A stretch of 64,000 nt of DNA from Spirochaetia bacterium (lineage in GTDB: Bacteria; Spirochaetota; Spirochaetia; DSM-2461), in assembly GCA_963666985.2 (NCBI GenBank), contig CAXXIA010000002.1, positions 832,001-896,000 of the forward strand, in the 5' to 3' direction. Below, piece by piece: positions 18 to 20,797 of this stretch; the first letter of the stretch is position 1, and each line of letters starts with the position of its first letter. Position numbers and translations under genes: made by a program. Under the pieces are notes generated by a model. It ran no database searches. It had not been told where the DNA came from and saw only the letters and a list, made by a program, of their open reading frames with translations.

Positions 18-881
18 ATGAAAATCAAACAAAGAACCGATACCCGCAAAGCCATGGCGCTCATTTCGCCCGCGCTGCTGTTCCTCTTTTTGGTTCAAAT
101 CTATCCGATCTTCGACGCATTCTATTTAAGCTTATTGAAAATCAAGGGGCGGAACAGCACCTTCGTCGGACTGACGAACTATATCCACATTTTTCAGAAT
201 TCCGATTTCTGGGAAAGTTCATGGTTAACGGCGCTCTTCACATTCGGATATCTGTCTCTGACGCTGATTCTGGCGATGCTCCTCGCTCTTCTCCTGAATA
301 GAAAACTTAAATTCTCATCCCTGTATCTGATTCTTATCTTCATCCCGTGGATTCTCTCGCCGGTCGTTGCCGGGACAATGTGGAGATGGCTTTTCCAGCC
401 GGCATACGGAATCATTCAAACTCTATTCGAACCCCTGATTCACAAGAGCCTGATTACGGACAAAGCGGGCGCGATGATGATCATCATCCTGGCGTTCCTC
501 TGGCAGAATCTTCCGTTGACGACGCTCTTGTTCCTGGGAGGACTCCAAACCATTTCAAAGGAAATTTTCGAATGCGCTTCACTGGACGGTGTAAGCGGTG
601 TTCAAAAATTCCGTTTCATCACCCTCCCTCTGATTAAGCCGATTCTCCTGATCAACATGATCATGGGCACCATTCGGGGCATAAACGTTATCAGCATCGT
701 CATGTCGATAACGCGGGGAGGCCCGGGACGGGCCACCGGCGTCTGGGGATTGTATCTCTATCAGACGGCTTGGCAATTCGGTGATTTCGGCAGCGGGGCC
801 GCTTTGGGAATCATCATGTTCTTCGTAAGCGTCCTGCTGTCGCTTCTCTATATCCGGTCCGTCAAGTTGGAGCCGAAATGA
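18..881 (+). CDS. Carbohydrate-type (CUT1) ABC transporter permease
   Basis: Multiple TM segments; EAA-like loop 'EIFECASLDGVSGVQKFRFITLPLIKP'; 'TRGGPG'. Confidence 0.93.
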   Translation: MKIKQRTDTRKAMALISPALLFLFLVQIYPIFDAFYLSLLKIKGRNSTFVGLTNYIHIFQNSDFWESSWLTALFTFGYLSLTLILAMLLALLLNRKLKFSSLYLILIFIPWILSPVVAGTMWRWLFQPAYGIIQTLFEPLIHKSLITDKAGAMMIIILAFLWQNLPLTTLLFLGGLQTISKEIFECASLDGVSGVQKFRFITLPLIKPILLINMIMGTIRGINVISIVMSITRGGPGRATGVWGLYLYQTAWQFGDFGSGAALGIIMFFVSVLLSLLYIRSVKLEPK

Positions 882-1714
882 TGAAAAAACACATGATGAT
901 TTCCACCGTATTCGTTCATCTGCTCCTCCTTGTCGTCTGCGCCGTCTGTCTCTTTCCGGTGTTCTATACGCTGACGACATCCTTCAAGGACGAAATCGAA
1001 GTCCTGACGAAACCTCCCCGGCTCTTCCCCGCGACATGGGTTATCAGCGGCTACGCGCAAGTCTTCAAAAGCAGCATGCTGACCTTATATCTGCCCAATT
1101 CCCTGATGAATTCCATCGTCACTTCCCTCATCGTCCTGCCTCTCGCCTCTCTGGCCGCTTACGGGTTTTCCCGTTATAAATTCAAGGGAAGTATGTTCAT
1201 TCAAGTCTGTATTCTGATGATTTGGATGGTTCCCCGTCTGACGACGCTTCTGCCCCTGTATAAAATCAGTTCCCGTCTTCATCTTCTGCAGACCCGCATT
1301 CCGCTTATCGCCGTCTATGCATCGTACTCCCTTCCCATCAGTATCTGGATTATCAAGAGCTTCATCGACGCCATTCCCAGGGACATGGAGGAAGCGGCGT
1401 GTTTGGACGGAACCACCTTGATTCAGTCCCTTTGGCACATCACCCTTCCGATGATCGCGCCCGGACTCTTTACGGCGTTTCTCATGGCATTCCTGGAATC
1501 CTGGAATGAATTTCTGGCGGCTGTCGTCCTGATCAGCAACAACAGCCTGAAAACGGCGACGGTCGGACTCTATGACTTTCAGTCGGCCTTCGAAACTTCA
1601 TATCACACCTTGGCCGCCGCCTGTATCGTCATCGCATTGCCGATACTGATAATCTTTATCCTCGGAAGGAAATATTTCTTCAAAGGGCTTATGGAAGGCG
1701 CCATTAAAGGCTAA
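878..1714 (+). CDS. Carbohydrate-type (CUT1) ABC transporter permease
   Basis: EAA loop 'MEEAACLDG'; 'SWNEFL'; C-terminal 'GLMEGAIKG'; ATGA overlap with previous gene. Confidence 0.93.
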   Translation: MMKKHMMISTVFVHLLLLVVCAVCLFPVFYTLTTSFKDEIEVLTKPPRLFPATWVISGYAQVFKSSMLTLYLPNSLMNSIVTSLIVLPLASLAAYGFSRYKFKGSMFIQVCILMIWMVPRLTTLLPLYKISSRLHLLQTRIPLIAVYASYSLPISIWIIKSFIDAIPRDMEEAACLDGTTLIQSLWHITLPMIAPGLFTAFLMAFLESWNEFLAAVVLISNNSLKTATVGLYDFQSAFETSYHTLAAACIVIALPILIIFILGRKYFFKGLMEGAIKG

Positions 1715-1753
1715 AACAACCATTGTTCGATCATCACGCTTAAGGAGACGCTT

Positions 1754-2485
1754 GTGACGATTAAAAACTCGGTAATCATGATAACCGGCGGAGCGATTCG
1801 CGTAGGAAAAGCTTTCGCTCTGCATTTGGCGCGACAGGGAGCTCATATCGCATTTACGTATTTCGACGATTCCGAAGACTGGGAAACCACATCCCGGGAA
1901 ATCGAAGAATGCGGAGTAAAATCCCTCCCCTTGAAAGTCGACAGCAGGGATTCCGCGCAAATCGGAGAAGCCGTTGAGAAAACCGCCGAGACTTTCGGCA
2001 CCATCAATGTTCTTATCAACAATGCCGGAATCTGGCTCAAAACACCGTTTCTCGAAATTCCCGAGGAGGACTTCGACAGGGAAATCGCGATCAACCTGAA
2101 AGGGCCCTTCCTTTTCTCCCAGAAGGTGGCTCCGATCATGCTGAAAGGCAAAGCCGGAGTCATCATCAACATCACCGATATCTCCGCGTTCCAAGTCTGG
2201 CCGGGTTATGCGCATCATGCCGCGTCAAAAAGCGGATTGGTTTCGCTGACCAAGCAGATGGCGACGGAGTTGGCTCCGTCCGTCAGAGTGAACGCCATCG
2301 CCCCCGGCACCATTATGCTTCCTCCGGAAGCCTCCGAAGAGAAAATCAAATGGTCCAGGGAAAATTCCCTGCTTAAACGAATCGGAAAGGTGGAAGAAGC
2401 CGCGCAGCTGGTTCAATTTCTTATCGAAAACGACTTTGTAACAGGAAGCGTTTATCCCATCGACGGAGGCAGGTCTCTGGTATGA
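1754..2485 (+). CDS. SDR oxidoreductase, pteridine reductase (FolM/PTR1/PruA)-like
   Basis: TGGAIRVG (TGxxxRxG), NNAG, 'VNAIAPG', 'FVTGSVYPIDGG'; GTG start after AAGGAG RBS. Confidence 0.85.
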   Translation: MTIKNSVIMITGGAIRVGKAFALHLARQGAHIAFTYFDDSEDWETTSREIEECGVKSLPLKVDSRDSAQIGEAVEKTAETFGTINVLINNAGIWLKTPFLEIPEEDFDREIAINLKGPFLFSQKVAPIMLKGKAGVIINITDISAFQVWPGYAHHAASKSGLVSLTKQMATELAPSVRVNAIAPGTIMLPPEASEEKIKWSRENSLLKRIGKVEEAAQLVQFLIENDFVTGSVYPIDGGRSLV

Positions 2486-3801
2486 ACAAAAAAGCGGAAT
2501 CGCCGAACGGCGATCTCCTGATAATCGGAGGCGCATATCTCCTTTCCGGCGGATGGCGGCAAGGGGGATATGCGCTGATCAAAGACGGAAAGATTGCAGA
2601 ACTCTCTCCGAAAGAGCCTTCGGAAGAACTGAAGGCCGGCGCGGGAAGCGTTATTTCCGCCGACGGTATGGCCGTTCTTCCCGGACTGATCAACGCCCAT
2701 ACCCACTTCGGACAAACATTCATGAGGGGATTGGCCGGAGGCAGGCCTCTGCTGCCTTGGCTGAAAGAGCGGATATGGCCTTTGCAGGAAGCCTTCGGTC
2801 CGGAGGAAATGGAATTGGCCGCGCAATTGGGACTGTTGGAAAACCTGCGATGCGGCGTTACGAAGGTTACCGACCATCATAAAATAACGAAGGAAAACAG
2901 GTACGCGGACATCGTTTGTACCGCCGCGGAGCAAGCGGGGATACGCTTAACCCTCGCACGGTCCTGGACGGATCTGGAGCCGGGAGGAGAACGGCCGGAA
3001 GCCGTTCTCGACGATCTGAAATCCCTTTTCGGCCGATGGAAAGGAAGCCGGTTCGTAACCATCGCCAACGGCCCGCTGGCGGCTTGGCGCTGCGGCGCAG
3101 AAACGCTTCAAAAAAGCCACGCCCTTGCGCGTGAAAACAATTCTTTTACCCATATCCACGTTTCGGAGGTTTCCGAAGAAGTCCGCAAGAGCCGGGAATC
3201 CTACGATCTTCCTCCCATCGCGTGGCTTGATTCATTGGGCATCCTGGACAGCAGGATGCAGTTGGTTCACTGCGTCTGGGCGGAACCGGATGAAATCGAA
3301 AGAATCGCCCGATCGGAATCCACGATGATCCATTGTCCGGTCAGCAATGCAGTCCTGGGATCGGGAATTGCGCCCTTGAAAAGATTCATCGAGAACAAGA
3401 TTCCCATTCTTCTGGGAACCGACGGCCCCGCGAGCAATGACACTCAGGATCTTATCGAAACGATGAAATCGGCTCTGCTTTTCGCCCGATCTTCGGAACT
3501 GGACGTTGAAGCCGTTTCCCCGGATCAGGTTCTTTCCATGGCCGTCGGGGGAAAACGCCTTGAAGCGGGAGCTCCGGCGGATCTGATACTCATCGATCTC
3601 GAAAATCCCCGGTCGGTTCCCGTTCATGACTATACGTCCGCCTTAACACTCGGCACACACGGGAGCGATGTGGCCACCGTGATTATCGACGGACGCATCC
3701 TGATTCAAGACAAAAAATGCCTGTTTCTCGACGAATCCGCGCTTCTCTCGGAATGCGGCAAAGCGGCGAAGAAACTGAAGAAACGCGCGGGGTTGGATTA
3801 A
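2482..3801 (+). CDS. Metal-dependent amidohydrolase, nucleobase/heterocycle deaminase family (MtaD/SsnA/AtzB-like)
   Basis: 'PGLINAHTHFGQ', 'HIHVSE', 'HCPVSN', 'LGTDG' metal-binding motifs; ATGA overlap with SDR. Confidence 0.88.
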   Translation: MNKKAESPNGDLLIIGGAYLLSGGWRQGGYALIKDGKIAELSPKEPSEELKAGAGSVISADGMAVLPGLINAHTHFGQTFMRGLAGGRPLLPWLKERIWPLQEAFGPEEMELAAQLGLLENLRCGVTKVTDHHKITKENRYADIVCTAAEQAGIRLTLARSWTDLEPGGERPEAVLDDLKSLFGRWKGSRFVTIANGPLAAWRCGAETLQKSHALARENNSFTHIHVSEVSEEVRKSRESYDLPPIAWLDSLGILDSRMQLVHCVWAEPDEIERIARSESTMIHCPVSNAVLGSGIAPLKRFIENKIPILLGTDGPASNDTQDLIETMKSALLFARSSELDVEAVSPDQVLSMAVGGKRLEAGAPADLILIDLENPRSVPVHDYTSALTLGTHGSDVATVIIDGRILIQDKKCLFLDESALLSECGKAAKKLKKRAGLD

Positions 3802-3914
3802 CCTGCCGTCACGCCGCGGTGTTCCGGGCGCGCGGACGGCGCTCTCATGAAGACGGGGGCGGGCGGGGTATCCGCGGCACAGCGGCCCCCGGGAAGCCGC
3901 AAGCACCCGGCGAA

Positions 3915-5273
3915 TCAGCCCGCCGTCCCGCCGCCCTTTCTCAAATAATCCTGAAGATTAACGGACGGATAAACCACTCTTTTCAGCGCTTTCTTTTTCG
4001 CCGGGAGGGTGGCGTCGATACCCATCTTGTTCTGCACTCCTTCGGAGTCGCTGCAGGGATCCAGTTCATGCCCCCGGCTGTTGGGAATGATGAACATATC
4101 CTCCCGGGGATTAACCCGGTTGCTCAATGCCCAAAAAACGTCGGAAGCGCTGAAGATGTCCACATCCGTATCGACGACGATGACATTCTTAATATTCACA
4201 TGAGCCGTCATGGCCGCCATGGCCACGTTCTTGGGTTCCCCTTCGTTCTTCTTCTCCATCTGAATAATCGCCATGAATCCTGAGCCGTAAGGCGGAATGT
4301 GAACGGCGGTAACGGAAGACGAGACATGCATCGCGAAACGCTTGAGCAAAGGCTCCCGGGGAAGAACATTGCCGAGATTGATGTGTTCGAAACTGGCGCC
4401 GTTCAGGGTTTGCCAGATGGGATTTTTTCGATGGGTAACGGCTTTGATCTTGAATACCGGGCTCTCCCAAAGCAAGCCGTAATGACCGGTGAACTCGGCC
4501 AGGGGGCCCTCTTCTTCCCTGACTCCCGGCAGAATTTCCCCTTCCAAAACGTACTCGCTGAAGGCGGGAACGCGGATGTCGCATGTTTCGCATTTCACGG
4601 TCTCAACGGGTTTCCCGCGAAGAGCTCCCGCGATTTCCGCCTCATCCCCTTCGTAGCGGAATCCCGCGGCGATCATCAATGCCGGATCCACTCCCACGGC
4701 CACGGCCACGGGCAGGGGCGCGTTTCGGTCTTCCGCCTTTTTCAAAAAGTCCCTCAAATGGCGCCAGGAATTGATCATGATGCCCATTTTATCCCTTCCC
4801 TTCACCTGCATTCGCTGGAAGCTTAAATTCTGCATGCCTGTTTCGGGATCTCTCCCGACGGTGACTCCGGCGGTAATGAACGGTCCTCCATCACCGGGAG
4901 CGTGAATCGGAATGGGAAGGCTCGTGAGATCCACCTCCTCACCGGTAAGAATAACTTCTTTGCAGGGCGCGTCTGAAATCTCTTTTGATGAGATGGGATT
5001 GTCCAAAACCCTCTCCATCCTGTCCGAGATTTCTTCCGGTTCACATTCAAGGGCTGCGGCAATCTTCTTATGATCCGAAAGCAAACCTCCGGCAACTTGT
5101 CCCGCCCCCCCCTTCAGCTCCGGAAAAAACGCGGCGGGACCATGGATTTTCTCCAAACCGGCGAGGACGCTTCCGATTTCATGCCGGAGGTCCACCGGCT
5201 TCACGATGGTTTCGAGTTCTCCCCGCGCTTCCAGGGCCTTCATAAATGTTCTTAAGTCGTAAATGTCCGCCAT
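3915..5273 (-). CDS. UbiD-family prFMN-dependent (de)carboxylase
   Basis: 'DGGPFIT', 'NLSFQRMQ' (Arg), 'EEEGPLAEFTGHY', 'VVDTDVDI', 'KMGIDAT'. Confidence 0.93.
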   Translation of the reverse strand: MADIYDLRTFMKALEARGELETIVKPVDLRHEIGSVLAGLEKIHGPAAFFPELKGGAGQVAGGLLSDHKKIAAALECEPEEISDRMERVLDNPISSKEISDAPCKEVILTGEEVDLTSLPIPIHAPGDGGPFITAGVTVGRDPETGMQNLSFQRMQVKGRDKMGIMINSWRHLRDFLKKAEDRNAPLPVAVAVGVDPALMIAAGFRYEGDEAEIAGALRGKPVETVKCETCDIRVPAFSEYVLEGEILPGVREEEGPLAEFTGHYGLLWESPVFKIKAVTHRKNPIWQTLNGASFEHINLGNVLPREPLLKRFAMHVSSSVTAVHIPPYGSGFMAIIQMEKKNEGEPKNVAMAAMTAHVNIKNVIVVDTDVDIFSASDVFWALSNRVNPREDMFIIPNSRGHELDPCSDSEGVQNKMGIDATLPAKKKALKRVVYPSVNLQDYLRKGGGTAG

Positions 5274-5289
5274 TTGATGTCCTTTGTTT

Positions 5290-6015
5290 TTATTTCCATT
5301 TGGTCAGAAACGCTAATTTAACAAGATGAGGATTAAACGAAATCAAACTCCTGCATACCAGATTGTCGAAAATGCTGATATGGTTTTCCTCCCAGCGAAT
5401 AAGAGATTCGCCCTCTTCCAGTTCGAGAATCTCAGCAAGCCGGGGAGAGGCCTTGGACGGTTCAAAACGCTTGAGTGATTGAACGACTTCTTCCGTAACA
5501 AGACTTTGAAGCTGTTCGTTGAACCCCGACGGATTCAGCGGCATAAAACCTTCGCTGCGTCGAAGGTAATCGGCGAGGATGAAATTCCGGCTGTAGATAA
5601 CCGGTTTTCCGTCGGCCGAATAGAGGTTCTCCAAGAGAAGGTAGCCCCGGCGGGGATTCAAATCCTCGAACAGCGAATCGGCCTCGCCGCCTTCCACCCA
5701 TCGGGGCTCTTTCCGATCCACCGAAACCGCATAGCCTCCGTTCTCAAGGAGACTCCGGAAGTCGCCGATTCTGTCGATTCGCATGGTTTCGTTCAAAGTC
5801 GTCGGATGGACGAGATTGCCCAATCCATGCTTTTTCGTAATAAAGCCTTCCCTGTTGAGAGCGATAAGGGCTTCACGCAGAGTCGTTCGGCTGATGCCGA
5901 ACTCCGAACAGAGATGAGCTTCGGAGGGAAGCCGATTCCCGGGAAATCGCGTTCCGGAAATAAGTTCCAAGAGTGCTTCTTTTGCTTTGACGTAAAGAGG
6001 ATTTTTTTCTATCAT
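5290..6015 (-). CDS. GntR-family regulator (HutC/UTRA-type)
   Basis: 'RLPSEAHLCSEFGISRTTLREAL' wHTH, 'KKHGLG'; 241 aa with UTRA-size C-domain. Confidence 0.88.
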   Translation of the reverse strand: MIEKNPLYVKAKEALLELISGTRFPGNRLPSEAHLCSEFGISRTTLREALIALNREGFITKKHGLGNLVHPTTLNETMRIDRIGDFRSLLENGGYAVSVDRKEPRWVEGGEADSLFEDLNPRRGYLLLENLYSADGKPVIYSRNFILADYLRRSEGFMPLNPSGFNEQLQSLVTEEVVQSLKRFEPSKASPRLAEILELEEGESLIRWEENHISIFDNLVCRSLISFNPHLVKLAFLTKWK

Positions 6016-6037
6016 AGATCATCTGCTCATCAGACCT

Positions 6038-6065
6038 ATTTTATAAAGATGAGAGAGCATGTCAA
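6038..6065 (-). promoter_or_regulatory. sigma70-type promoter for gntR-ubiD
   Basis: Minus strand TTGACA-N16-TAAAAT just upstream of the gntR ATG (6015). Confidence 0.6.
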
Positions 6066-6129
6066 TCTCTTCACGAAAATCGCGGCGATGAAGTTCCACA
6101 TCCGGCCGCTTCGGTTAAGGATTCCGATT

Positions 6130-6726
6130 ATGAACGATCAGACAAAACACCCTCTTCTTGTAGGGATTACCGGCGCTTCCGGAGCTCTTTTGGCCGGAAG
6201 ATTCCTTCGGATACTGAAAGAAGAGAAAATCCCGATGAGAATCATCATTTCGCAATGGGCGGAAGAAGTCGCTCTTTCGGAAACGGGTCAATCTTGGTCC
6301 GATTTGCTGGCGGATCTAAACCTGAAGTCCTTCCGGAGGGATTGGACCGACCTTTCGGCCGATATCGCCAGCGGCTCCTTCCCTTCCGAAGGAATGGTGA
6401 TCCTGCCCTGCTCCATGGGAACCCTCGGCGGCATCGCGGCGGGGATTTCCAGGAACCTCATCGAAAGGGCGGCCGATGTTATGCTGAAAGAAAGAAAACC
6501 GCTTGTTCTCGTGCCCAGGGAAACACCGCTGAACACGATTCATATCAAAAACATGCTGCGCCTTTCCGAAGCGGGCGCGATTATCATGCCGCCGATGTTC
6601 TCTTTCTATACCAATCCGGAAAATATTCCGGAAATGATCGATCAGTTCGCCTATAGGATTCTCAAATGTCTGGGCATTGAATCAGACGGATTAAAGATCT
6701 GGAATCCCGAGATCGCGGGCCGATAA
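6130..6726 (+). CDS. ubiX: UbiX-family flavin prenyltransferase
   Basis: 'VGITGASG', 'IASGSF', 'PCSMGTL', 'RAADVMLKERKPLVLVPRETP'; start moved to ATG 6130 (5' part of track ORF 5479.. overlaps gntR). Confidence 0.93.
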   Translation: MNDQTKHPLLVGITGASGALLAGRFLRILKEEKIPMRIIISQWAEEVALSETGQSWSDLLADLNLKSFRRDWTDLSADIASGSFPSEGMVILPCSMGTLGGIAAGISRNLIERAADVMLKERKPLVLVPRETPLNTIHIKNMLRLSEAGAIIMPPMFSFYTNPENIPEMIDQFAYRILKCLGIESDGLKIWNPEIAGR

Positions 6727-6933: not shown

Positions 6934-7767
6934 CTATTTCACTCCTCCGAACGTCAGGCCGCTTACATAATATTTCTGCAGCAGAAGAGAAAGAACGATA
7001 ACCGGAAGAACCGACAGCACACCCATGGCCGCCATGGTGGTCCAGCCGACGCTCATCATGCCGAAAGTGCTGAGCATTCCCAAAGGCAATGTCGCGGTTG
7101 CCGGAGCTGTCAGTGTTAAGGCGAAGATAAAGTCGTTCCATGAATAAATGAACGCAAAGAGCGCCGAAGTTACCAGCCCGGGAAGACTTAAAGGAATCAC
7201 GACTCTGTAGAACGCTTTAAAAATGCCGCATCCGTCGATTATGGCGGCCTCCTCCAGATCTTCCGGAACGGCTTCGAAAATCCCGGACATCAGCCAGGCC
7301 GTAAAACAGGCGTTGTAGATCGTATCGATCAGGATAACCGCCAATCGCGTTCCGAAAAGCCCCAATTTCTGCATAAGAATCCGAAACGGCAGAACAATCA
7401 GAACCGGCGGCAGAGTCCTGGCCAGCAGGATGAAGGACAACAGCAGGAAGCGTCCTCTGAATCGCACCCTGGAAAACGCATATCCGGCGGGTACGCCCAG
7501 CAGAAGTGAAAGAATCATCGTTCCGAATGAGATGACGATGCTGTTCCAGCCCCACTTGAATACGGGCATGGAACCGGTAACGTATTCAAAGTTGGTGAAC
7601 GTCGGCTTAAAGCGGAACCAAACGGGAGGAAGCTTGAACATTTCGATTTTGAACTTCAGCGATGTCTGCAGAAGCCACAGAATCGGGATGAGGAAGAATC
7701 CGAGGGCCAGGGCGATGAGGATGTACCGCATCCAGCGGGTATACATCCGTGTCGATGGAAGACTCAT
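6934..7767 (-). CDS. Carbohydrate ABC transporter permease
   Basis: 'LEEAAIIDG', 'SWNDFIFAL', 'GLTFGGVK'. Confidence 0.93.
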   Translation of the reverse strand: MSLPSTRMYTRWMRYILIALALGFFLIPILWLLQTSLKFKIEMFKLPPVWFRFKPTFTNFEYVTGSMPVFKWGWNSIVISFGTMILSLLLGVPAGYAFSRVRFRGRFLLLSFILLARTLPPVLIVLPFRILMQKLGLFGTRLAVILIDTIYNACFTAWLMSGIFEAVPEDLEEAAIIDGCGIFKAFYRVVIPLSLPGLVTSALFAFIYSWNDFIFALTLTAPATATLPLGMLSTFGMMSVGWTTMAAMGVLSVLPVIVLSLLLQKYYVSGLTFGGVK

Positions 7768-8666
7768 TTATTCCTCCCTCTGTTGCTGTAGAGAACTTGC
7801 ATGAACACCATTCCAAGAACGACTCCCGCCACAAGCAGGACATTCGACATCGAAGCGGCATATCCGATATGAAGCTGCTGAATCCCCACTTCATAAATCC
7901 TGAGATTGGCCACCGTCGTCGCCGTTCCGGGCCCCCCGTTCGTCGTGGCGAAGATTGTATCAAACGTCTTCATGGCGTCCAAAGTCCTGATCAGCAGGGC
8001 GATGAGCAGCGTCGGTTTCAGCAGCGGCAGAGTAATATGCCGAAAAAGGGCGAATTTTCCGGCACCGTCGAGCATCCCGGCTTCATAGGGCTCCTTCGGC
8101 AGGCTTTTCATGCCGGCCAGAACGATGATGGCCACCAGAGGCGTCCATTCCCAGATATCGATAATCACGATGCCCAAAAGCGCGAGATGCCGCTCGACCA
8201 AAAGCCCTCGACCGATATTGAGTCCGATAAGGCGCATGTAATACGTCAGGAATCCCTGGTCCGGATGATAGAGAGCTTTCCAAAGCAATCCGACGACCAA
8301 AGGGGTGAAGACCGTCGGAAGCAGAATCAGAGTTCTGAAAAAACCGATGATTTTCGATTCGATATTGAAAAGAAGCGCGATAAGAATTCCCAAAAACAGC
8401 TGGCTGGCGACGCAGTAAATAATGTAAAGAATCGTGGTTTTCAGAGAACCGACGAACTGCTCGTCACGGAGCATAAGAAGATAATTTTTTCCGCCGTTAA
8501 ACGTCTTCTCTGCACCCAGGGAATAATCGAAGAAGCTTATAACGATGTTATAGATAACGGGATAGAGAAAAAAAACCACCATATAAAGGCTTAAGGGAAT
8601 AAGGAAGAGAGCGATGTATTCCTTGTAAAAGTGTTTTTTCAGAGTACGGCGCATCAAAAGCTCCAC
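7764..8666 (-). CDS. Carbohydrate ABC transporter permease
   Basis: 'DIWEWTP', 'PYEAGMLDGA', 'TNGGPGTAT'. Confidence 0.93.
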   Translation of the reverse strand: MELLMRRTLKKHFYKEYIALFLIPLSLYMVVFFLYPVIYNIVISFFDYSLGAEKTFNGGKNYLLMLRDEQFVGSLKTTILYIIYCVASQLFLGILIALLFNIESKIIGFFRTLILLPTVFTPLVVGLLWKALYHPDQGFLTYYMRLIGLNIGRGLLVERHLALLGIVIIDIWEWTPLVAIIVLAGMKSLPKEPYEAGMLDGAGKFALFRHITLPLLKPTLLIALLIRTLDAMKTFDTIFATTNGGPGTATTVANLRIYEVGIQQLHIGYAASMSNVLLVAGVVLGMVFMQVLYSNRGRNK

Positions 8667-8678
8667 TTGGCCACGCGA

Positions 8679-8711
8679 AACGGCCGCCCGCCTTGGAAAC
8701 GGGCGACCGTT
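8679..8711 (-). terminator. Intercistronic stem-loop after binding-protein gene
   Basis: AACGGCCGCCCG...CGGGCGACCGTT near-perfect inverted repeat between SBP stop and permease. Confidence 0.5.
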
Positions 8712-8720
8712 CGGGGTTAC

Positions 8721-10055
8721 TTATTCGCCGATGGCGATAAGATCTTCTTCCATCTTCTTGATGGCTTCGTCCACGGTCAGCTCATGAGTGATGGCTTGAT
8801 TCACCCTCAATCCGAGAGCGTTCTGGACTTCATTGGCTTTGGGTCCGCGGGGACGATAATCACCGTCTCCGTTTTCAAAGACGTTCAGCATCACCGGCAG
8901 CCAAGGTTTCTCCTTCAGAATGCCGGGATCGTTCAGGGTGGAATACCTGATGGGGGCTCCGTCGTGCAGCATCCATTCTTTCTGCATCTTTTCGCCGCAG
9001 ATGTACTTCACGAAGGCCCAAGAGGCTTCTTTCTCGACATCGCCGATGTCGTCGTTGATGCCCACTCCCCAGCCGCCGACACCGTAGAGGGAATCAACAC
9101 CCTCGGCCAGAGGAGTCGCGGTCATGCCGGTTTTCCCGCCGACCATGGAAATTTCGGGATTTTCATATCCTGCCCGGGCGATGCTCCAGCTGGACTGCAT
9201 CACGGCCTGGCCGGTCCGGTAAGCGGTTTCCCTGTCGTCCCACCAGTAGCCGATGGCTCCCGGAGGGGCATATTTATCAAAAATCCGGACGTAGAATTCC
9301 AGGGACGCCTTGGCTTCGGGACTGTTGACGGCCACGTTGCCTTTCTCGTCGTATAAGGAAGCGCCGTATGCCCTCATGTATTCCATCCAGTCCTGAGCAA
9401 CCGCCGATCCCCTCGCCCCGTTGGCCACAAGGCCGTAAAGATTCTGTTCCGGACGGGTAAAGAATTCGGCGATGTCCTCAAGAGCTTCCAGAGTTTGGGG
9501 AGCGCCGAGGTCGTATCCGTAGCGGGCTTTGAACGCTTTCATCTCTTTCGGATCGGTGAAAAGATCCTTCCGGTAAATCAGGCTGTTCGCGTATCCGGCC
9601 ATCGGGAAAGCGATCTGCCGGCCGTTCCAGGAACCCATGGACCACATCACGGGAATGATGTCGTCGAGATTAACCTCATCGGCGTCCCGTTCCATCAAAT
9701 CGGTCAGATCCATGGTGAATCCCTTGTCTTCAAATTCACCGGTCCACATAATGTCGACGGTCGCCAAATCGTAGAGTTTGGTGTTGGAAGCATAATCCTG
9801 GGTAATCTTCTGGTACAGTTCGACATACCCGATAACATCGACCAGAATATCGGCTCCCGTTTCATCCGCGAAGGATTTTCCAAGCTCTTTCAGGTAGTCC
9901 GCATACTGTTCGGCGCAGACCGCCATCGTCAGAGAGACACCCTCGTAAGGGAGTTCCGAAACGGCTCCTTTTGCCGATGAGTCCTGAGAACCGCCGGCGA
10001 AAAGAAAAACCGATACCGCTGTAAGTACGCATAAGGCGCTTACTATCCTTTTCAT
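8721..10055 (-). CDS. Sugar ABC transporter substrate-binding protein
   Basis: Signal peptide followed by 'FAGGSQD'; 'YRKDLF', 'GGWGVGIN'; leads two permeases. Confidence 0.92.
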   Translation of the reverse strand: MKRIVSALCVLTAVSVFLFAGGSQDSSAKGAVSELPYEGVSLTMAVCAEQYADYLKELGKSFADETGADILVDVIGYVELYQKITQDYASNTKLYDLATVDIMWTGEFEDKGFTMDLTDLMERDADEVNLDDIIPVMWSMGSWNGRQIAFPMAGYANSLIYRKDLFTDPKEMKAFKARYGYDLGAPQTLEALEDIAEFFTRPEQNLYGLVANGARGSAVAQDWMEYMRAYGASLYDEKGNVAVNSPEAKASLEFYVRIFDKYAPPGAIGYWWDDRETAYRTGQAVMQSSWSIARAGYENPEISMVGGKTGMTATPLAEGVDSLYGVGGWGVGINDDIGDVEKEASWAFVKYICGEKMQKEWMLHDGAPIRYSTLNDPGILKEKPWLPVMLNVFENGDGDYRPRGPKANEVQNALGLRVNQAITHELTVDEAIKKMEEDLIAIGE

Positions 10056-10116: not shown

Positions 10117-11148
10117 TTACTCCTGCATTTTCACCGCCACCCTGTAATTTTCCGGATTCAAAGAGGCCCTGAATGCCTTTTCGGCCCGATTCAGAGGATG
10201 GATTTCATTTAAGTACGGTTTCATGTCCACGAGGTTCTCCGAGAGAAGACGGGCGGCCCGGAAGAAATCCTCCGTGGAGGGGCTGTAGGATCCGGTAATC
10301 ACCTGCTGGTTGTAATGAACGGCATTTGGATCGAAGGGGATGGTTCCCTTGGGATGAAAGGATCCGTAATAGATTATTGTCCCGGATTTTCTGACATAAC
10401 CGAACGCTTCTTCGGCTATGGACAATTGCGGCGTGGTAATAATGAAACAGTCGAGCTTCTTCCCGCCGGTGAACTCATCGACGGCTTGAGAAACCGATTC
10501 TCCGAACGGATCGACCGTCCGATGCACGCCGACTTCACGGGCCAGGGCCGCTTTCGTTCCGTTCGGTTCCATGAGGAGAACCTTGGCTCCCCTCATGGCC
10601 GCCAGGATGCCGTTGAGCTGTCCCATGATGCCGCCGCCGGAAATCCCGACGAAGTCTCCCGGCAGAATATCCGCCCGCATAACGCTGTGATAGCAGCAGG
10701 CAAGAGGTTCGGCGAACGCCGCGATTTCCAGCGGAAGGTCGGAAGCGACTTTGAAGATTCGTCCGGGTTCCAAATCGATGTACTGCGCCATTCCGCCGCT
10801 TCCGGGGATTCCGCCGTACTCCCTTTTCCTGGAAACGCCCTCGCAAAGATTCGTTTCCCCGGCATAACAGAATCGACAGTGACCGCAGTGATCGAGGGTT
10901 TTGAACACAACCGAATCCCCGACGCGGAAAGAGGTTGCCGTATCGGGATGAATCTCTTCAATAACTCCGGATGCCTCATGCCCGGGAACGAAGGGCAGCG
11001 GCGGAGAATCGCCGGTAAAAATCCGCTTTTCCCAAGTACAGATAAGACAGTATTCAATCCTGATGCGGATGAATCCGGGAAGTAATTCCGCGAGCGGAAC
11101 TTCCTTAATCTCGATTGTCTCCGGGGCCGTCACCGTCAGCGCTTTCAT
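10117..11148 (-). CDS. Zn-dependent alcohol/polyol dehydrogenase (MDR)
   Basis: 'PGHEASG', structural Zn 'CGHCRFC...C', 'AEPLAC', 'GGGIMG'. Confidence 0.9.
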   Translation of the reverse strand: MKALTVTAPETIEIKEVPLAELLPGFIRIRIEYCLICTWEKRIFTGDSPPLPFVPGHEASGVIEEIHPDTATSFRVGDSVVFKTLDHCGHCRFCYAGETNLCEGVSRKREYGGIPGSGGMAQYIDLEPGRIFKVASDLPLEIAAFAEPLACCYHSVMRADILPGDFVGISGGGIMGQLNGILAAMRGAKVLLMEPNGTKAALAREVGVHRTVDPFGESVSQAVDEFTGGKKLDCFIITTPQLSIAEEAFGYVRKSGTIIYYGSFHPKGTIPFDPNAVHYNQQVITGSYSPSTEDFFRAARLLSENLVDMKPYLNEIHPLNRAEKAFRASLNPENYRVAVKMQE

Positions 11149-11158
11149 GGCGTCTCCT

Positions 11159-11938
11159 TTAGCTCCTCATAACCTCATCGGCCGTCTCGTTTTCATGAAC
11201 GATCCGGCACAGGGCCTTCATGCGGTCGTAGGGATCGGGCTGTCCCCAAACATTACGGCCGATGGCCACGCCCGCACCGCCGACTTCATTGGCGAGCTGT
11301 ACCGTTTTCAACAAAGTTTCAAAATCGGAACTGTGGGCGCCTCCGAGAATAACAACGGGCACGTAGCTGCTCTCGATGATTTCGGCGAATTCCTCCCGGT
11401 TTCCGGCAAAGGTGGTTTTAATGATTGAAGCGCCCAGTTCGGCACCGATCCGGCAGGCCAGCCGAACGTTCTCGGCGCTTTTCTCGGGTTTCGCGCCGAA
11501 GCCTCCGGGCAGCATTTCGGCCATCAGCGGAACGCCCCAGTCCCGGCATTTTTCTCCCAGAAAAGCCAGATTCTTCAGCGTTATCTTTTCGTTGTCCGTT
11601 CCCAGGAAACCCATGCAGGCCACGCCGTCGGCTCCAAGCTTCAGCGCCGCTTCCAGAGAATACAGGAGGGCATCGCCGGATGCGCCGCTCAGCTGACAGC
11701 TTCCTCCGTCCATGCGAAGAATTAAACCGCACCGAGAAAGGGACTTTTCAAACGTATTCGCTACTCCGAATGTCGTCAGGACCGCATCCGCGCCCGCTTC
11801 CAGGCAGCGCTCGATGACGTAATCGGGGCGTTTGAGACCCGGATGAACATCCAGGCTCGCTCCATGATCAATCGGCAGGATAACGGTTTTGTCATCCGCG
11901 CCGAACAGGTTCTTCATTCGTCTCATGTGTCGTGACAC
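11159..11938 (-). CDS. DhnA/LsrF-type class I aldolase family protein
   Basis: 'PIDHG', 'RIGAELGASIIKT' (Schiff-base Lys), 'VVILGG', 'GVAIGRNVW'. Confidence 0.88.
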   Translation of the reverse strand: MSRHMRRMKNLFGADDKTVILPIDHGASLDVHPGLKRPDYVIERCLEAGADAVLTTFGVANTFEKSLSRCGLILRMDGGSCQLSGASGDALLYSLEAALKLGADGVACMGFLGTDNEKITLKNLAFLGEKCRDWGVPLMAEMLPGGFGAKPEKSAENVRLACRIGAELGASIIKTTFAGNREEFAEIIESSYVPVVILGGAHSSDFETLLKTVQLANEVGGAGVAIGRNVWGQPDPYDRMKALCRIVHENETADEVMRS

Positions 11939-13359
11939 TCCTTCATGTTATTTGCGCTTTTTTGGTTGTTGATATCCGACAAATTATGAAAAGAATCCTT
12001 CAAAAGTTCGGACAGCTTCACAAACTCTCCGTAGAGATCTTCGTAGTGCCGCTTCCGAATTCCTGAGGAATCGGGATAAAAGGTTTTGCGAATCCGCAAG
12101 ATACGCAATTCTTCCACGGGATTGGCCATCTTACGGAAATATCCGCAGAGGCAAAGGTCTCCCAATGGGGCCGTATCTTTATAAACCGGCTGAATATAAG
12201 GATGATTCAGAATATCCGCTTTCATCTGAAGCCAGTATTCGTTCTCGGCCCCTCCGCCGGCGGCGAATATGGCTCCTCCCGGCTTATAGAGATCCGCCGG
12301 AAGCAGTTCCAGATTGTGCTTAATCGCGAACGTGATTCCTTGAAGAACCGAACGGCGAAGGGTTTCGCGATCCGTCCGATCGGTTAGGCCGACGAAAGCG
12401 CCTTGAAGCTTATCGTCCCAGAAAGGAGTCCGTTCACCGTTCAGATAAGGAAGAAAAATAGTATTCACGGGTCCGCGAACGGCGCCCTCCGGGGAAGAGG
12501 CCGCCGGGGTTAGGTTCCGAAACCATTCGATGGCCGACCCCGCATTGGACATCAGGGCGATTACAAGTCCCCGTTCGGGAACAACATGGATATCCCCTTG
12601 ATTTCTGCGGGCGCAAACCGAAAGACAGGTTGACGTGCCCGAACCTTCGGTTATGTCGCCGATCGAAACGGCTCCGCCGCCGAGGGCCTCGCAATAAGCG
12701 TCGATGCCTCCGGCGAGAACCGGAATGCCGTCCCTCAGGCCGCAGGAGCGGCTGAACACCGTTCCGGTTTCCCCCACCGGAGCATGGGATTCGAAAACCT
12801 CGGGAAGAAGGGAACAAGGGAATTCCATGCTTTCGGAATCCCAAGAAAGGGCGGACTTGTCGAAAAAAGTCAGGGTTGAAGCGGTGGAAAGATCGAATCC
12901 CTTCCCGCCCGTCAGAAGAAAATTGATATAATCCTTGGGATAGAGGAAGGATTTCACCCGCGGATTCCTCAAAAATTCCCTCAGACACTTGGCTTCCCAA
13001 GACGTGCCGTCCTTCTTGAACGAAGGAAAATCCCGCCGAATCCGGTCAGCTTCCTCCGAAGCGTCGCGATTCTGCCAGGTGGCCATGGGTCCCATGGGAT
13101 TTCCGTCGGCATCAAGAGAAATCAAGGAAGGACCATGACACGAAACGGCGATGCACTCGGGAGCTTCCCTCCGCTCTTCGGCGCCGAAGAGCGAACGGAT
13201 GAAGTCGCCGACGGATTCCGAAAAGGCCGGAACATTTTGATAAAACCCGGGAAGAAAAGTTTCTTCGCGATACGATTGGGAAAACACTTCCAGCGTCCCG
13301 TCCTTCCAGACGGCGGCCTTCATGCTTCCGGTTCCAAGGTCCAGCCCCAAGAACGTCAT
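11923..13359 (-). CDS. FGGY-family carbohydrate kinase (xylulokinase-like)
   Basis: 'LGLDLGTGSMK', 'GGID', 'GTS', 'FLPYLNGERTP', 'GGGA'. Confidence 0.9.
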   Translation of the reverse strand: MTFLGLDLGTGSMKAAVWKDGTLEVFSQSYREETFLPGFYQNVPAFSESVGDFIRSLFGAEERREAPECIAVSCHGPSLISLDADGNPMGPMATWQNRDASEEADRIRRDFPSFKKDGTSWEAKCLREFLRNPRVKSFLYPKDYINFLLTGGKGFDLSTASTLTFFDKSALSWDSESMEFPCSLLPEVFESHAPVGETGTVFSRSCGLRDGIPVLAGGIDAYCEALGGGAVSIGDITEGSGTSTCLSVCARRNQGDIHVVPERGLVIALMSNAGSAIEWFRNLTPAASSPEGAVRGPVNTIFLPYLNGERTPFWDDKLQGAFVGLTDRTDRETLRRSVLQGITFAIKHNLELLPADLYKPGGAIFAAGGGAENEYWLQMKADILNHPYIQPVYKDTAPLGDLCLCGYFRKMANPVEELRILRIRKTFYPDSSGIRKRHYEDLYGEFVKLSELLKDSFHNLSDINNQKSANNMKECHDT

Positions 13360-14102
13360 ACCGCGCCTCCGCTGTTCCTGTTGAGATGAACGACGAACTG
13401 ATAGCGGTCGGATCTGTAGAATCCTTCCGAGAACTCAACAACCCGGGAGTTTTTGTCGTAGGAATAGGTTTTCAGGGACATAACGGAAGCCGGCTGTTCA
13501 ATTTCCAGATAATCGGCGATTCGATCGTCGGCAAGAATTGAAGAAACTTCCCTCTTCGCCTCTTTAATGTAAATGCCGCATTGTTCCTCAATGAGTTTAT
13601 AGATGGATTTTCTATAGTCTTCTTCGAGGCTGAGCCCCAGAGTTCCCAGAATGAAATTTTCGAAATAGCCGATCGGTTCTCCTTCGCAATAGCGAAGCCT
13701 TTTAATGTGAAGAACCGGATCCCCTTCCCTGATTCCCATATGCATCGCAATCAGCGTCGGAGCCAGTGTTAATTGAGCATCCAGAACTTCGGTTGAAAAA
13801 TGGATGGAAGAACCGTTTGTTTTTTCCGAGAAGCTTTGAAGTCCGAAAGCATCGTCGATAAATTTCGGAGTATTAACGATGGTGCCCCGCCCCCGATGTT
13901 TGGAGAGCAATCCTTCGGAAACCAATCCTTCGATGGCTTTCCGAACGGTTATCCTGCTGATGCTATAGGTATCGATCAGTTCACTCTCCGAAGGAATAAT
14001 GTCCCCGGGCTTGTACTCGCCCGAAGTAATTTTCTTGTACAGAATCTTTTCCAGCTGGGCATAAAGAGGAATCAAGCTCTCTGGATCTATTCCATCGTTC
14101 AT
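13356..14102 (-). CDS. GntR-family regulator (HutC/UTRA-type)
   Basis: 'PLYAQL', 'IPSESELIDTYSISRITVRKAI', 'RGRGT', 'YRSDRY'. Confidence 0.92.
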   Translation of the reverse strand: MNDGIDPESLIPLYAQLEKILYKKITSGEYKPGDIIPSESELIDTYSISRITVRKAIEGLVSEGLLSKHRGRGTIVNTPKFIDDAFGLQSFSEKTNGSSIHFSTEVLDAQLTLAPTLIAMHMGIREGDPVLHIKRLRYCEGEPIGYFENFILGTLGLSLEEDYRKSIYKLIEEQCGIYIKEAKREVSSILADDRIADYLEIEQPASVMSLKTYSYDKNSRVVEFSEGFYRSDRYQFVVHLNRNSGGAV

Positions 14103-15764: not shown

Positions 15765-17357
15765 TCAGTAGAGCGTTAAGAGTCCGCTCACTTTATCCCG
15801 GCCCAGTACGTGAAGGAAACTCAGCAGCCTGGGACCTTTTTCTTTTCCGATGAGGGCTCTGTAAACAGCCGAGAAGAAATCGGCGGACTCCAAATTATGA
15901 GAATGGATAATGTCGTACATCAGGTTGGAGAATTCTTTTTCCGGAATATCGCCGAGCTTTTCCGCGGCCAGGTTTCCCAAATCCCGAACGGCCGCGGTAT
16001 AGATTTCATCCAGTTCCACGGGTCCCTCTTCAATTCCGCGGACGGAAAAACGGAAATCCTCCGGAGCGAAATCGTTCACCCAGTTCCAGGCGCAGAGGGC
16101 GCGTGTACGAAAGCGTTTCAAATCGGCATTCGGAATATCGCCGAGAAAGTCGATAACGGCATCGACATCACCCGAATGAATCTGCAGAAGAGTGGTAAGG
16201 TGCCGAATCTGAATTTGATAAGGAAGACGGGAAGGGGCTCCGCCGACTTGAGAAAGTTCGTAAACGCGGGCGTCCTTTTCCCATTTCTTGAGCTTTTTGG
16301 GATTATCCGGTTTCTCGAAATACGTCCGCTCGATTTTATCATAATCCTCGTAGATTTTAAGAACGTCCAAATCGAAACTGATGGCGAATTCGCTGTTGGG
16401 GCGTGTTCCGGCGAAGAGGAAGCGGATAACCTCCGGCTGGTAATACCTTAATACATCATTAAGCGACACCACCTCTCCGGATGATGAAGAGATTTTTCCG
16501 CTGCCGCCTTTTACCCGAACAAAATCGTATTGGAAGGTTACCGGAGGTTTATGGCCGAAGACTTCCATGCTCGTAAGTTTGGCGGTATCGAAACTGCCGC
16601 CTTCCGAATGATGGTCTTTTCCCGCCGGCTCGAAATCCACGCTTTCATACGCCCACCTCATGGGCCAATCGATACGCCAGGGAAGTTTTACCGCGGAGGT
16701 TTCCCGAAGATCCACCGTTTCGCTGTTTCCGCAAGAACCGCATTCATAGGACACACCGAAATCCCCGATGCGCCCGGTTACTTTGGTTGTATCCCGTTCA
16801 CACCGCGTACAAAAAACACTCACCGGCCACCAGTCGTCGTCCAGCGGTTCCGTTCGGTGAGTATTCAGCTGCCGCCGGATATCGTTCCGATGATCAAGGG
16901 CGACTTTTATACTGTCCGCGTATTGGGAGGAACGATACTTTTCGGCCTGATAGATGTATTCGGGCTCAATGCCCACCTTCGGCAAAAGGGCTTCCAAAGC
17001 CTTCTCGTTGTGGGCGGCGTAACTCGCCTCATTGCCGACGACATCAGGAACAAGGGTTATGGGTTTACGCAGATACGAGGCAAGAAGCTCCTGCTGGGGC
17101 ATGTTCGCCGGAACTTTTCGGAAAACATCATAATCATCCCAGGAATAAAGAAAGCGAACTTTTTTCCCGCGGTCCTTTAAGGCCCTCACCACCAGTTCCA
17201 CCGAAATAATTTCTCGAAAATTTCCGATATGCACCGTTCCCGAGGGCGTAATGCCCGAGGCACAGACATATTGGCGTTTATCTCCGCGTTCACGGATGAT
17301 CCGATCGGCGGTTACGTCAGCCCAGTGGCTGGAAAGAGGTCCTTGATTGATATCCAT
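15765..17357 (-). CDS. lysS: Lysine--tRNA ligase, class I
   Basis: 'HWAD', 'SGITPSGTVHIGNFRE', Zn motifs CxxC, 'KLPWRIDWPMRW', 'GKDH', 'KISSS', 'GPRL'. Confidence 0.97.
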   Translation of the reverse strand: MDINQGPLSSHWADVTADRIIRERGDKRQYVCASGITPSGTVHIGNFREIISVELVVRALKDRGKKVRFLYSWDDYDVFRKVPANMPQQELLASYLRKPITLVPDVVGNEASYAAHNEKALEALLPKVGIEPEYIYQAEKYRSSQYADSIKVALDHRNDIRRQLNTHRTEPLDDDWWPVSVFCTRCERDTTKVTGRIGDFGVSYECGSCGNSETVDLRETSAVKLPWRIDWPMRWAYESVDFEPAGKDHHSEGGSFDTAKLTSMEVFGHKPPVTFQYDFVRVKGGSGKISSSSGEVVSLNDVLRYYQPEVIRFLFAGTRPNSEFAISFDLDVLKIYEDYDKIERTYFEKPDNPKKLKKWEKDARVYELSQVGGAPSRLPYQIQIRHLTTLLQIHSGDVDAVIDFLGDIPNADLKRFRTRALCAWNWVNDFAPEDFRFSVRGIEEGPVELDEIYTAAVRDLGNLAAEKLGDIPEKEFSNLMYDIIHSHNLESADFFSAVYRALIGKEKGPRLLSFLHVLGRDKVSGLLTLY

Positions 17358-19595: not shown

Positions 19596-19651
19596 GTAAA
19601 AACTTTTGCCGAAAGATCGGCAGAGTTTAAATATTTTCTGGAGGTACAGAA

Positions 19652-20707
19652 ATGAAAAGGAGACTCTTAATTCTCGCGGTCTTTTTCGTTATTACCGGAG
19701 GCATGACACTGTATGCCGCCGGCGGAGCGGAGGGTGCGTCAGGCGGGCAGCAAGGTCCCATCGAACTGAAGTACAACGACTTCAATTCCTCAGGTATTGG
19801 AATTACCATGATGACTGAAAAATACCTGAATGAAGTTGAAACGCTTACCGAAGGACGGGTTAAGATTACCTGTTACTTCAACGGCAGTCTGATTAAGTAT
19901 CCCGAAACCTTTCAGGGCATATCCAACGGCGTGGCCGATATTACCTATTACATGATCGGCGGCACTCCGGGCGTTCATCAGCTGAATGAAGTGTTCAACC
20001 TGCCGTTCCTCGGGTTCAAAGACAGCCCGAGCGCTTTGCGGGTTTACAACAAAATGCTGGAGGATTATCCGGCTCTTCAGGAAGAAAACGAACAGTACAA
20101 TGTTCGGGCTTTGGCCATCCATCCCATGCTTCCGTTCCACCTGCATATGACCGACAAACTTTGCAGAACTCCGGCCGACATGAAGGGTGAGAAAATCCTT
20201 GCCGAAGGACACAACGCCGTTATGTTCAGCGATATGGGAGCTTCGGCCATGAATATGGGTCCTCAGGATTGGTACACATCCCTGCAGAGAAACGTGGTAA
20301 ACGGACACTTCACCCACTTCGTCGTTCCCATGGAATTTAAAACCGACGAACTGCTGAAATACCACACCATGTTCGGAGAAGGCGGCGGCGGGAACGGATG
20401 CATCGTCTACCTCGTCAATCTGGATTCCTGGAACAAATTAACTCCGGAAGATCAGAAAATCGTCGGCGATGTGTTCCAAAAGATTAATGAGGAAGCCGTT
20501 ACACTTGATCTCGGACTTCAGGAAAAGGCCTTTGCCAGCCTTGAGGCGCAGGGAGGTCATACCATCGTGACACTCACACCCGCCGAAATGGAACTCTGGC
20601 GAAAAGCCGCGCAGCCGGCGATCAACGAATGGATTGAAGCCACCGAATCCAAGGGTCTTCCCGGAAAAAGAATCTATAAAGCCATCACCGAACTGGCGGC
20701 TCAATAA
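19652..20707 (+). CDS. dctP: TRAP transporter solute-binding protein
   Basis: Signal peptide; 'LPF', 'DMKGEKI', 'YTSLQRNVVNG', 'WNKLTPEDQ'; precedes small and large permeases. Confidence 0.88.
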   Translation: MKRRLLILAVFFVITGGMTLYAAGGAEGASGGQQGPIELKYNDFNSSGIGITMMTEKYLNEVETLTEGRVKITCYFNGSLIKYPETFQGISNGVADITYYMIGGTPGVHQLNEVFNLPFLGFKDSPSALRVYNKMLEDYPALQEENEQYNVRALAIHPMLPFHLHMTDKLCRTPADMKGEKILAEGHNAVMFSDMGASAMNMGPQDWYTSLQRNVVNGHFTHFVVPMEFKTDELLKYHTMFGEGGGGNGCIVYLVNLDSWNKLTPEDQKIVGDVFQKINEEAVTLDLGLQEKAFASLEAQGGHTIVTLTPAEMELWRKAAQPAINEWIEATESKGLPGKRIYKAITELAAQ

Positions 20708-20797
20708 ACAGATTGAGAATGCATTCCGTGTCTTCCCGATTTTTCGCGGAGGCACGGAAATGCATTTTTTAGTTTTCAAAGAAAGAACAGGTTTTCC

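Follow-up and report, generated by a model that had tools for sequence, protein, structure and literature searches.

What do a short-chain dehydrogenase/reductase (SDR), an amidohydrolase and a UbiD decarboxylase act on when their genes stand beside an ATP-binding cassette (ABC) transporter and ubiX? The question is raised by one end of a 64,000-nt stretch (G000:C2:832001-896000; the window) of a 4.86-Mb, 93% complete genome of a Spirochaetia bacterium. An earlier interpretation of this DNA, the sequence-only reading, proposed that the locus imports, reduces, deaminates and decarboxylates a pterin or a modified nucleoside. After comparing the locus with its relatives, we favor, with some reserve, an accessory locus by which 6-substituted pterins, such as the breakdown products of folate, biopterin and neopterin, would be catabolized anaerobically. 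We are fairly confident that the substrate would be a pteridine, and incline, less firmly, to the view that UbiD would perform the decarboxylation of a 6-carboxylate. The sequence-only reading is supported, subject to the corrections given below, with predicted substrates and with a gene context that points to a 6-carboxylate step; the same context favors a pterin and leaves the modified nucleoside less favored. All seven open reading frames lie where they had been placed, with overlaps of 4 bp between the permease genes and between the SDR and amidohydrolase genes, the arrangement and the TGGAIRVG and HTHFGQ motifs are as described, and Pfam and NCBIfam profiles confirm the families.

The UbiD protein, the only one found in the genome, has three UbiD domains, the catalytic Arg...Glu-x4-Glu (Arg154, Glu255 and Glu260, all intact) and a linked UbiX; it scores 359.5 against a TIGR00148 cut-off of 244.85, and UbiX scores 207 against 108.9 for TIGR00421. 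It falls below the NCBIfam cut-offs that serve as tests for the VdcC, menaquinone and ubiquinone UbiD proteins (NF041204, 343.7 vs 650; TIGR03701, 217 vs 496; PRK10922, 198 vs 788). A search with an alignment of 41 homologs gave 225 matches in genomes and at least 522 in metagenomes, of which the best 80 from each set were collected, and the tree was built from 229 distinct sequences (235 were kept after fragments below 330 residues were dropped). The window protein belongs to a clade of 169 (FastTree support 0.969; SH-aLRT 96.4 in a 60-sequence subset), with HmfF-type, VdcC and XCDC-type proteins all outside it. The phylogeny thus leaves the sequence-only reading standing, as the protein lies outside the phenolic-acid, menaquinone and furan clades. 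Asn168 (168/169), Trp170 (169/169), Asn302 (160/169) and Tyr329 (164/169), together with Arg206, form an active-site signature that is common to soil and anaerobe members and differs from those of XCDC and HmfF. His297, also intact, is linked to furan specificity in the available text on HmfF (PMC7976604); it is a weak clue, because AroY and XCDC have His there too. The nearest relatives of the window protein are from Spirochaetota, and its occurrence is scattered: within the family, 2 of 38 genomes (the source included) carry it, as do 10 of 401 sampled from the class and none of the 13 other genomes of the genus (71-95% complete). A separate UbiD clade from Clostridia, Thermotogota and Spirochaetia (L025-L042) is 30-33% identical to the window protein and usually has UbiX about 1 kb downstream.

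The clade is tied to pteridines by its soil members. Lumazine cluster I of Cupriavidus sp. LA-1, in the accessible part of its description, comprises a pterin deaminase, LuDH, a two-subunit DHL isomerase, a GTPase, xanthine-8-carboxylate decarboxylase (XCDC) and UbiX, the isomerase subunits being 65% identical and the beta subunit having His6, His8 and Asp235 (PMC12391406, Doi et al. 2025). Two plasmid loci (L256 and L257) match this layout, with isomerase subunits 64% identical and the same three beta residues; their XCDC orthologs, identified by layout and isomerase residues, served as references in place of the LA-1 protein itself. Our first suspicion, that the window UbiD is XCDC, was ruled out by an identity of 32-33% to these references, against the roughly 60% or more required for an XCDC ortholog, and by its separate clade. 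The soil subclade, 38 metagenome loci at ~50% identity, is sister to the anaerobe members. Six-frame searches, in which LuDH was counted apart from xdhA, found DHL isomerase orthologs at 16 soil loci, an XCDC-type second UbiD at 10 and LuDH at 7; the 11 soil loci that are 12 kb or longer account for 10, 9 and 6 of these, and none of the three occurred at 43 control UbiD loci. These tests used outside references and are hence free of the circularity of our neighbor panel, discussed below. Because soil members sit in orthologs of the lumazine cluster beside XCDC and the controls do not, the clade UbiD appears to serve lumazine breakdown at a step different from that of XCDC; the presence of two unrelated UbiDs within a single lumazine cluster implies that decarboxylation happens twice. 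The soil loci also carry a GlcD-like oxidase (8/38) and a CoxL-like oxidoreductase (17/38), and the non-soil loci carry an Fe-alcohol dehydrogenase (Fe-ADH; 33 of 169), an aldehyde dehydrogenase (ALDH; 19) and AOR (15); these unrelated enzymes follow the same alcohol-aldehyde-acid logic. On the simplest reading, the C6 carbon would be removed from hydroxymethyl through formyl and carboxyl to CO2. As a separate observation, a Bacillota UbiD that is sister to XCDC (42%; L154:1-1365) adjoins a clade UbiD and is a possible anaerobic XCDC.

Pterin-handling families recur near the clade UbiD: among the 169 loci we counted FolB at 9, pteridine-reductase (PTR)-like SDRs at 25, RibD-C at 14, Mch at 7 and FolK at 1, with FolB, RibD-C, Mch and FolK in non-soil loci and one of the 25 SDRs in a soil locus. 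Of the 99 clade loci that are 12 kb or longer, 56 have at least one pteridine marker, compared with 0 of 36 controls; such zeros are partly circular because the neighbor panel was built from clade loci, and the metagenome loci are partly redundant and related ones non-independent. Putative side-chain cutters are nearly mutually exclusive (of 169 loci, none has FolB with E1 or FolB with DhnA and one has E1 with DhnA), a pattern confounded by lineage. Amine-oxidase-like genes, at 12 of 131 non-soil loci, could encode proteins that split folate at its C9-N10 bond. In the NCBIfam scan, TIGR00525 is passed by three of five cluster FolBs, and of 10 cluster FolBs that were aligned, 9 carry Gln at a position occupied by Glu in four solved aldolases and in the genome's own FolB. 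This Glu, we assume, binds the 2-amino group, so that Gln would suit a deaminated, lumazine substrate and would place deamination early. A literature check of the Glu/Gln rule gave no usable passage in the available text of two articles (PMC2229834, PMC3704241). Divergent FolB-like genes whose products have Gln for the conserved Glu stand in tandem, in twos or threes, in L156:11498-12496, L160:11979-13505 and L282:7268-8095; one type has a C-terminal insertion, and a hetero-oligomeric lumazine aldolase is possible. Homologs of Mch (methenyl-tetrahydromethanopterin cyclohydrolase) stand in catabolic clusters of non-methanogens (L004, L145, L180-L183, L198) and exceed the TIGR03120 cut-off in both tested. 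Gut Oscillospiraceae (Pseudoflavonifractor) are among the UbiD carriers.

The sequence-only reading depended on the SDR, deaminase and UbiD genes belonging together, and this is borne out in a further phylum. An initial scan with UbiD gave just two close loci with little context in common, and anchoring on the SDR and on the UbiD alignment resolved the pattern. The SDR scan yielded 46 loci, 25 close (51-68% identity; 24 Chloroflexota, 1 Zixibacteria) and 21 distant; flanks were limited to 10 kb and the amidohydrolase was counted at 40% identity or more. The close loci contain the amidohydrolase in 20 cases, UbiD in 16 and both in 16, besides an SsnA-like gene (14), xdhA (9), the binding protein (7) and ygeY (7), and none of the 21 distant loci has the amidohydrolase, UbiD or another locus partner. 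The grouping exceeds chance. Permeases 1 and 2 are 33-37% and 39-42% identical, respectively, to permeases adjoining the orthologous SDR-amidohydrolase pairs in Chloroflexota, and GntR orthologs at 46-54% adjoin clade UbiDs in L099, L105 and L177. In another genome (G210), outside these tallies, the UbiD module, the downstream sugar-type module and ygeY/ssnA/preA/xdhA form a single run in a different order.

The SDR had been said to carry the pteridine-reductase signature, and half of it is there. The Arg of TGxxxRxG, a pteridine-reductase feature in the accessible portion of one article (PMC13259868), is retained, but the catalytic Tyr of YxxxK, required in PruA according to the available text of another (PMC4488946), is replaced by His. 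Arg16, Asp142, His155 and Lys159 are kept in 120 of 120 top homologs and in 29 of 29 aligned SDRs covering both paralog groups; Gly92 of the window protein stands where 116 of the 120 have Ser. Because of the His, the SDR does not appear to be a canonical pteridine reductase, and since the His is fixed throughout, the replacement looks like a selected change, not decay. The best of 223 NCBIfam matches is a pteridine reductase (PRK09135, 190 bits vs a cut-off of 288), and the genome's own FolM-like protein likewise stays below the pteridine-reductase cut-off (164.8). The SDR has Asp at the usual Ser position, presumably as in PTR1, FolM and PruA. Sequence and fold searches rank FabG first and do not discriminate among SDRs. 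An ordinary YxxxK FolM-like reductase followed by folB/folX (G000:C1:1127316-1128440; L287) provides an in-genome control.

The amidohydrolase has the HxHxxQ, HxxE, His and Asp set of guanine, 8-oxoguanine and isoxanthopterin deaminases, and its catalytic residues (His73, His75, Gln78, His226, Glu229, His263, Asp314) are invariant in 31 of 31 close homologs. The Gln after HxH, taken earlier as a pointer to guanine-type deaminases, proved not to be specific: AtzA has HxHxxQ too, and the protein passes no NCBIfam equivalog cut-off (8-oxoguanine deaminase, 229 vs 532; guanine deaminase, 132 vs 375). Structure 2paj, which we take to be isoxanthopterin deaminase, ranks 11th of 20. Gln102 replaces a Glu of S-adenosylhomocysteine/methylthioadenosine (SAH/MTA) deaminases that presumably binds ribose, and this favors a free base as substrate. 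The enzyme is a probable pterin to lumazine deaminase.

Upstream of the window lies a divergent operon running from a UacX/PreA-like gene to ygeY, which is probably the ring-opening half of the system. Its PreA-like product belongs to the dihydroorotate-dehydrogenase family, its Xdh has three subunits, its YgeY scores 453.7 against a cut-off of 321, and a second GntR gene (+) lies by the binding-protein gene. These genes match the reductive urate pathway of the Clostridioides difficile type, in which, in the available text, UacX and UacY take the place of YgfK and YgeW and whose Chloroflexota versions have an F420-type reductase (10.1101/2025.05.19.654654). The LLM, SsnA, hydantoinase and YgeY genes were considered as pterin-specific and rejected as such; because the described urate-pathway variant has them, they were not counted as pteridine markers. 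The SsnA-like protein reaches 195.8 bits, below the TIGR03314 cut-off of 455.5, and a UacX/PreA-like gene is present; YgfK and SsnA proteins above cut-off are encoded near C2:758-762 kb, in a canonical ygfK-ssnA-ygeY-xdh urate cluster (L264, G000:C2:752000-762500). Because these canonical copies exist, the SsnA-like/UacX-like module may be a paralog free for another ring. By analogy, the ring that it would reduce and open is that of the decarboxylated pteridine or of a purine made from this; here our proposal is least certain. A separate cluster (L263, C2:715000-721500) combines a carbamoyltransferase, an XdhD-like protein and an amidohydrolase.

Overall, we propose a putative route for 6-substituted pterins. 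The ABC transporter would import the pterin, and the amidohydrolase would remove the 2-amino group to give the lumazine series. The C6 substituent would then be cut to one carbon and oxidized from CH2OH through CHO to COOH; in relatives, FolB-like proteins, thiamine-pyrophosphate-dependent E1/E2 or DhnA may do the cutting and Fe-ADH with ALDH, AOR or XOR the oxidation, and here the upstream Xdh might serve, perhaps with the downstream dehydrogenase/aldolase/kinase module, unless a 6-formyl or 6-carboxy compound is taken up directly. UbiD, with prenylated flavin mononucleotide (prFMN) from UbiX, would decarboxylate the pteridine-6-carboxylate, the His-variant SDR would set the redox state of the pyrazine ring, and, if reductive urate breakdown is a guide, the bare ring would be reduced and hydrolyzed by Xdh and the UacX-like, SsnA-like, UacY-like and YgeY proteins encoded upstream. 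More tentatively still, and at slightly less than even odds, this might be the first genetic route for anaerobic pteridine-ring destruction, spread across Spirochaetota, Chloroflexota and Bacillota. We are similarly hesitant about its suggested parts: a prFMN-dependent pteridine-6-carboxylate decarboxylase, a lumazine-adapted FolB, His-variant PTR homologs and a repurposed copy of the urate pathway.

Besides the circularity and redundancy of the neighbor counts, several observations weigh against this proposal. The side-chain step is weak here, because the locus has no FolB, E1/E2, Fe-ADH, ALDH or AOR ortholog and the genome's best matches to those cluster proteins are only 27-39% identical or located elsewhere. 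DHL isomerase was not found in the source genome (best match 28%, E 1.5e-4), which means that the ring cannot be broken down as in the published route and that the ring-opening step is drawn by analogy only. No pteridine marker lies within 10 kb in 43 of the 99 long clade loci, and some loci (L003, L176, L177) offer little context. The binding-protein search gave weak sugar-binding matches only, with no hint of a ligand. The SDR has lost the catalytic Tyr, and the top fold matches of its model are of the FabG type rather than pteridine reductases. The amidohydrolase scores nearer to SAH/MTA deaminases and AtzA than to 2paj, and the tally of 64 amidohydrolases among the 169 loci lumps subfamilies, because the Firmicute members counted with that of the window are only 23-33% identical to it.

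Other readings account for parts of the same evidence. In one, which we consider unlikely, the pathway is still a pteridine pathway, but the pteridine undergoes hydroxylation and ring contraction; UbiD would then be a further xanthine-8-carboxylate decarboxylase, unrelated to XCDC, and xanthine would enter the paralogous reductive urate pathway. His297 is common to the window protein and XCDC, and Xdh, the UacX-like or F420-type reductase, SsnA-like protein, hydantoinase, carbamoyltransferase/D-aminoacylase and YgeY mirror the urate pathway as given in the available text (10.1101/2025.05.19.654654). However, the clade UbiD coexists with an XCDC ortholog in 10 of 38 soil loci, shares 32% identity with XCDC and has a different active-site signature, and DHL isomerase is absent from all 131 non-soil clade loci as well as from the genome. 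An equally improbable substrate is a 5-hydroxymethyl-pyrimidine (thymine, hydroxymethylcytosine or the thiamine pyrimidine) that is deaminated, oxidized to the 5-carboxylate and decarboxylated before reductive pyrimidine breakdown. PreA-like, hydantoinase and ureido-hydrolase genes, NMT1/THI5 binding proteins and BMP transporters (32/169 loci) would fit this, but it leaves unexplained the DHL isomerase, XCDC and LuDH around soil members and the FolB, PTR-like SDR, RibD-C and Mch around others. A presumed cytidine-deaminase-like open reading frame beside UbiD in L004 would also fit this reading. Slightly less probable again is a clade that is not isofunctional and acts on various N-heteroaromatic acids (e.g., 7-deazapurine-7-carboxylate or imidazole carboxylate), the window copy not being the pterin one; the neighborhoods are highly varied and two genomes carry two clade members each, yet the signature is near-invariant over 169 sequences and the window UbiD adjoins a PTR-like SDR. 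A prFMN decarboxylase has reportedly been described from purinolytic clostridia, a report not found in the literature searched. Very improbable is an HmfF-like furan-dicarboxylate decarboxylase. In its favor, HmfF is the nearest solved structure (PDB 6h6v; 41% identity, TM 0.90) and the nearest for the predicted model, which gave nothing further, several clade members bear the JGI label '2,5-furandicarboxylate decarboxylase 1', and ALDH, Fe-ADH and UbiD also meet at an HmfF-type locus; against it, HmfF-type proteins form a separate clade (39% for that of Geobacillus kaustophilus), positions 168, 170, 302 and 329 differ, and nitrogen-heterocycle enzymes predominate in the neighborhoods.

Features of the locus and its surroundings (positions in the window unless a contig is named)
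Feature	Position	Strand	Remarks
CUT1 (sugar-type) ABC permease 1	18-881	+	PF00528; UgpA/MalF-like but below cut-offs
CUT1 ABC permease 2	878-1714	+	PF00528
Pteridine-reductase-like SDR	1754-2485	+	Arg16, Asp142, His155-x3-Lys159 replacing Tyr-x3-Lys
Metal-dependent deaminase-type amidohydrolase	2482-3801	+	PF01979; putative pterin to lumazine deaminase, predicted substrate
prFMN-dependent UbiD decarboxylase, uncharacterized clade	3915-5273	-	proposed pterin/lumazine-6-carboxylate decarboxylase
GntR/HutC-type (UTRA) regulator	5290-6015	-	PF00392 and weak PF07702; same orientation as ubiD
UbiX flavin prenyltransferase	6130-6726	+	prFMN supply; passes TIGR00421, PRK06029
Second CUT1 ABC transporter (two permeases, binding protein)	6934-10055	-	possible member of the system
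Zn-alcohol dehydrogenase, DhnA-type aldolase, FGGY kinase, GntR	10117-14102	-	possible side-chain/sugar module; Pfam/NCBIfam families
Binding protein of the ABC transporter	G000:C2:830628-831938	+	upstream of window; 79 bp before permease 1
UacX/PreA-like, xdhABC-like, LacI, SsnA-like, D-aminoacylase-like, YgeY	G000:C2:819331-829193 (L001:7331-17193)	-	upstream of window

The binding-protein gene had been expected upstream of base 1 and was recovered there. Orthologs of the second CUT1 transporter, at 41-70% identity, adjoin clade UbiDs in L105 and L168. Of the downstream module, DhnA occurs near the clade UbiD at 7, FGGY at 4 and Zn-alcohol dehydrogenase at 3 of the 131 non-soil loci and at 0 of 43 control loci; the module with its GntR gene also adjoins UbiD in G210. 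Farther into the window lie a presumed class I lysyl-tRNA synthetase (15765-17357) and what we take to be two old-yellow-enzyme-like flavin oxidoreductases flanking a TRAP-type transporter (17652-24654). Scans for promoters, terminators, repeats and GC content gave nothing above chance.

Pterins are made by every cell. It was not until 2025 that genes for breaking them down were described, for unsubstituted or hydroxylated rings in an aerobe, according to the available text (PMC12391406); the present locus supplies candidate enzymes and substrates for the entry of side-chain pterins and for anaerobic breakdown. If our proposal is true, the clade decarboxylase would provide the aerobic lumazine pathway with the entry step for side chains that it lacks, and gut Oscillospiraceae (Pseudoflavonifractor) could consume folate and neopterin breakdown products. 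The frequent furan-dicarboxylate decarboxylase label of the clade is now flagged. On a decarboxylase for pterin-6-carboxylate or a pathway for pterins in anaerobes, the open literature, to which the search was confined (subscription papers lay outside its scope), gave just the 2025 lumazine paper as relevant. The earlier statement that no pterin-carboxylate UbiD had been described needs amending, as a pterin-pathway UbiD, XCDC, has been published (PMC12391406, in the part available), but it holds in that XCDC is of a different clade with a different substrate.

Among known systems, LA-1 cluster I likewise applies a deaminase, an XOR-family enzyme, UbiD/UbiX, a transporter and regulators to pteridines, and soil members of the window's UbiD clade are embedded in its orthologs. 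It differs in that its XCDC belongs to another clade (32%), whereas the window locus has no DHL isomerase or LuDH ortholog and an Xdh 32% identical to the L257 subunit; neither side-chain removal nor an anaerobic route appears in the accessible description (PMC12391406). The reductive urate (2,8-dioxopurine) pathway shares Xdh, the dihydroorotate-dehydrogenase-family reductase, the SsnA-like protein, D-aminoacylase and YgeY with the upstream operon, but the SsnA-like protein here is far below cut-off and no hydantoinase or diaminopropionate lyase gene was seen in the locus; the available text of that paper has 0 mentions of UbiD or pterin (10.1101/2025.05.19.654654). HmfF has the catalytic Arg/Glu/Glu, His297 and the logic of hydroxymethyl to acid to decarboxylation in common with the window UbiD, and differs in its separate clade, about 39-41% identity, other active-site residues and other gene context. 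PTR1, FolM and PruA share the TGxxxRxG Arg and the best NCBIfam family with the SDR, whose subfamily differs by the His for Tyr of YxxxK and by its catabolic context. Judged from its genes, the locus follows a logic like that of the lumazine cluster and, in the later steps, resembles the reductive urate pathway; it falls outside XCDC, HmfF, canonical pteridine reductase and SsnA.

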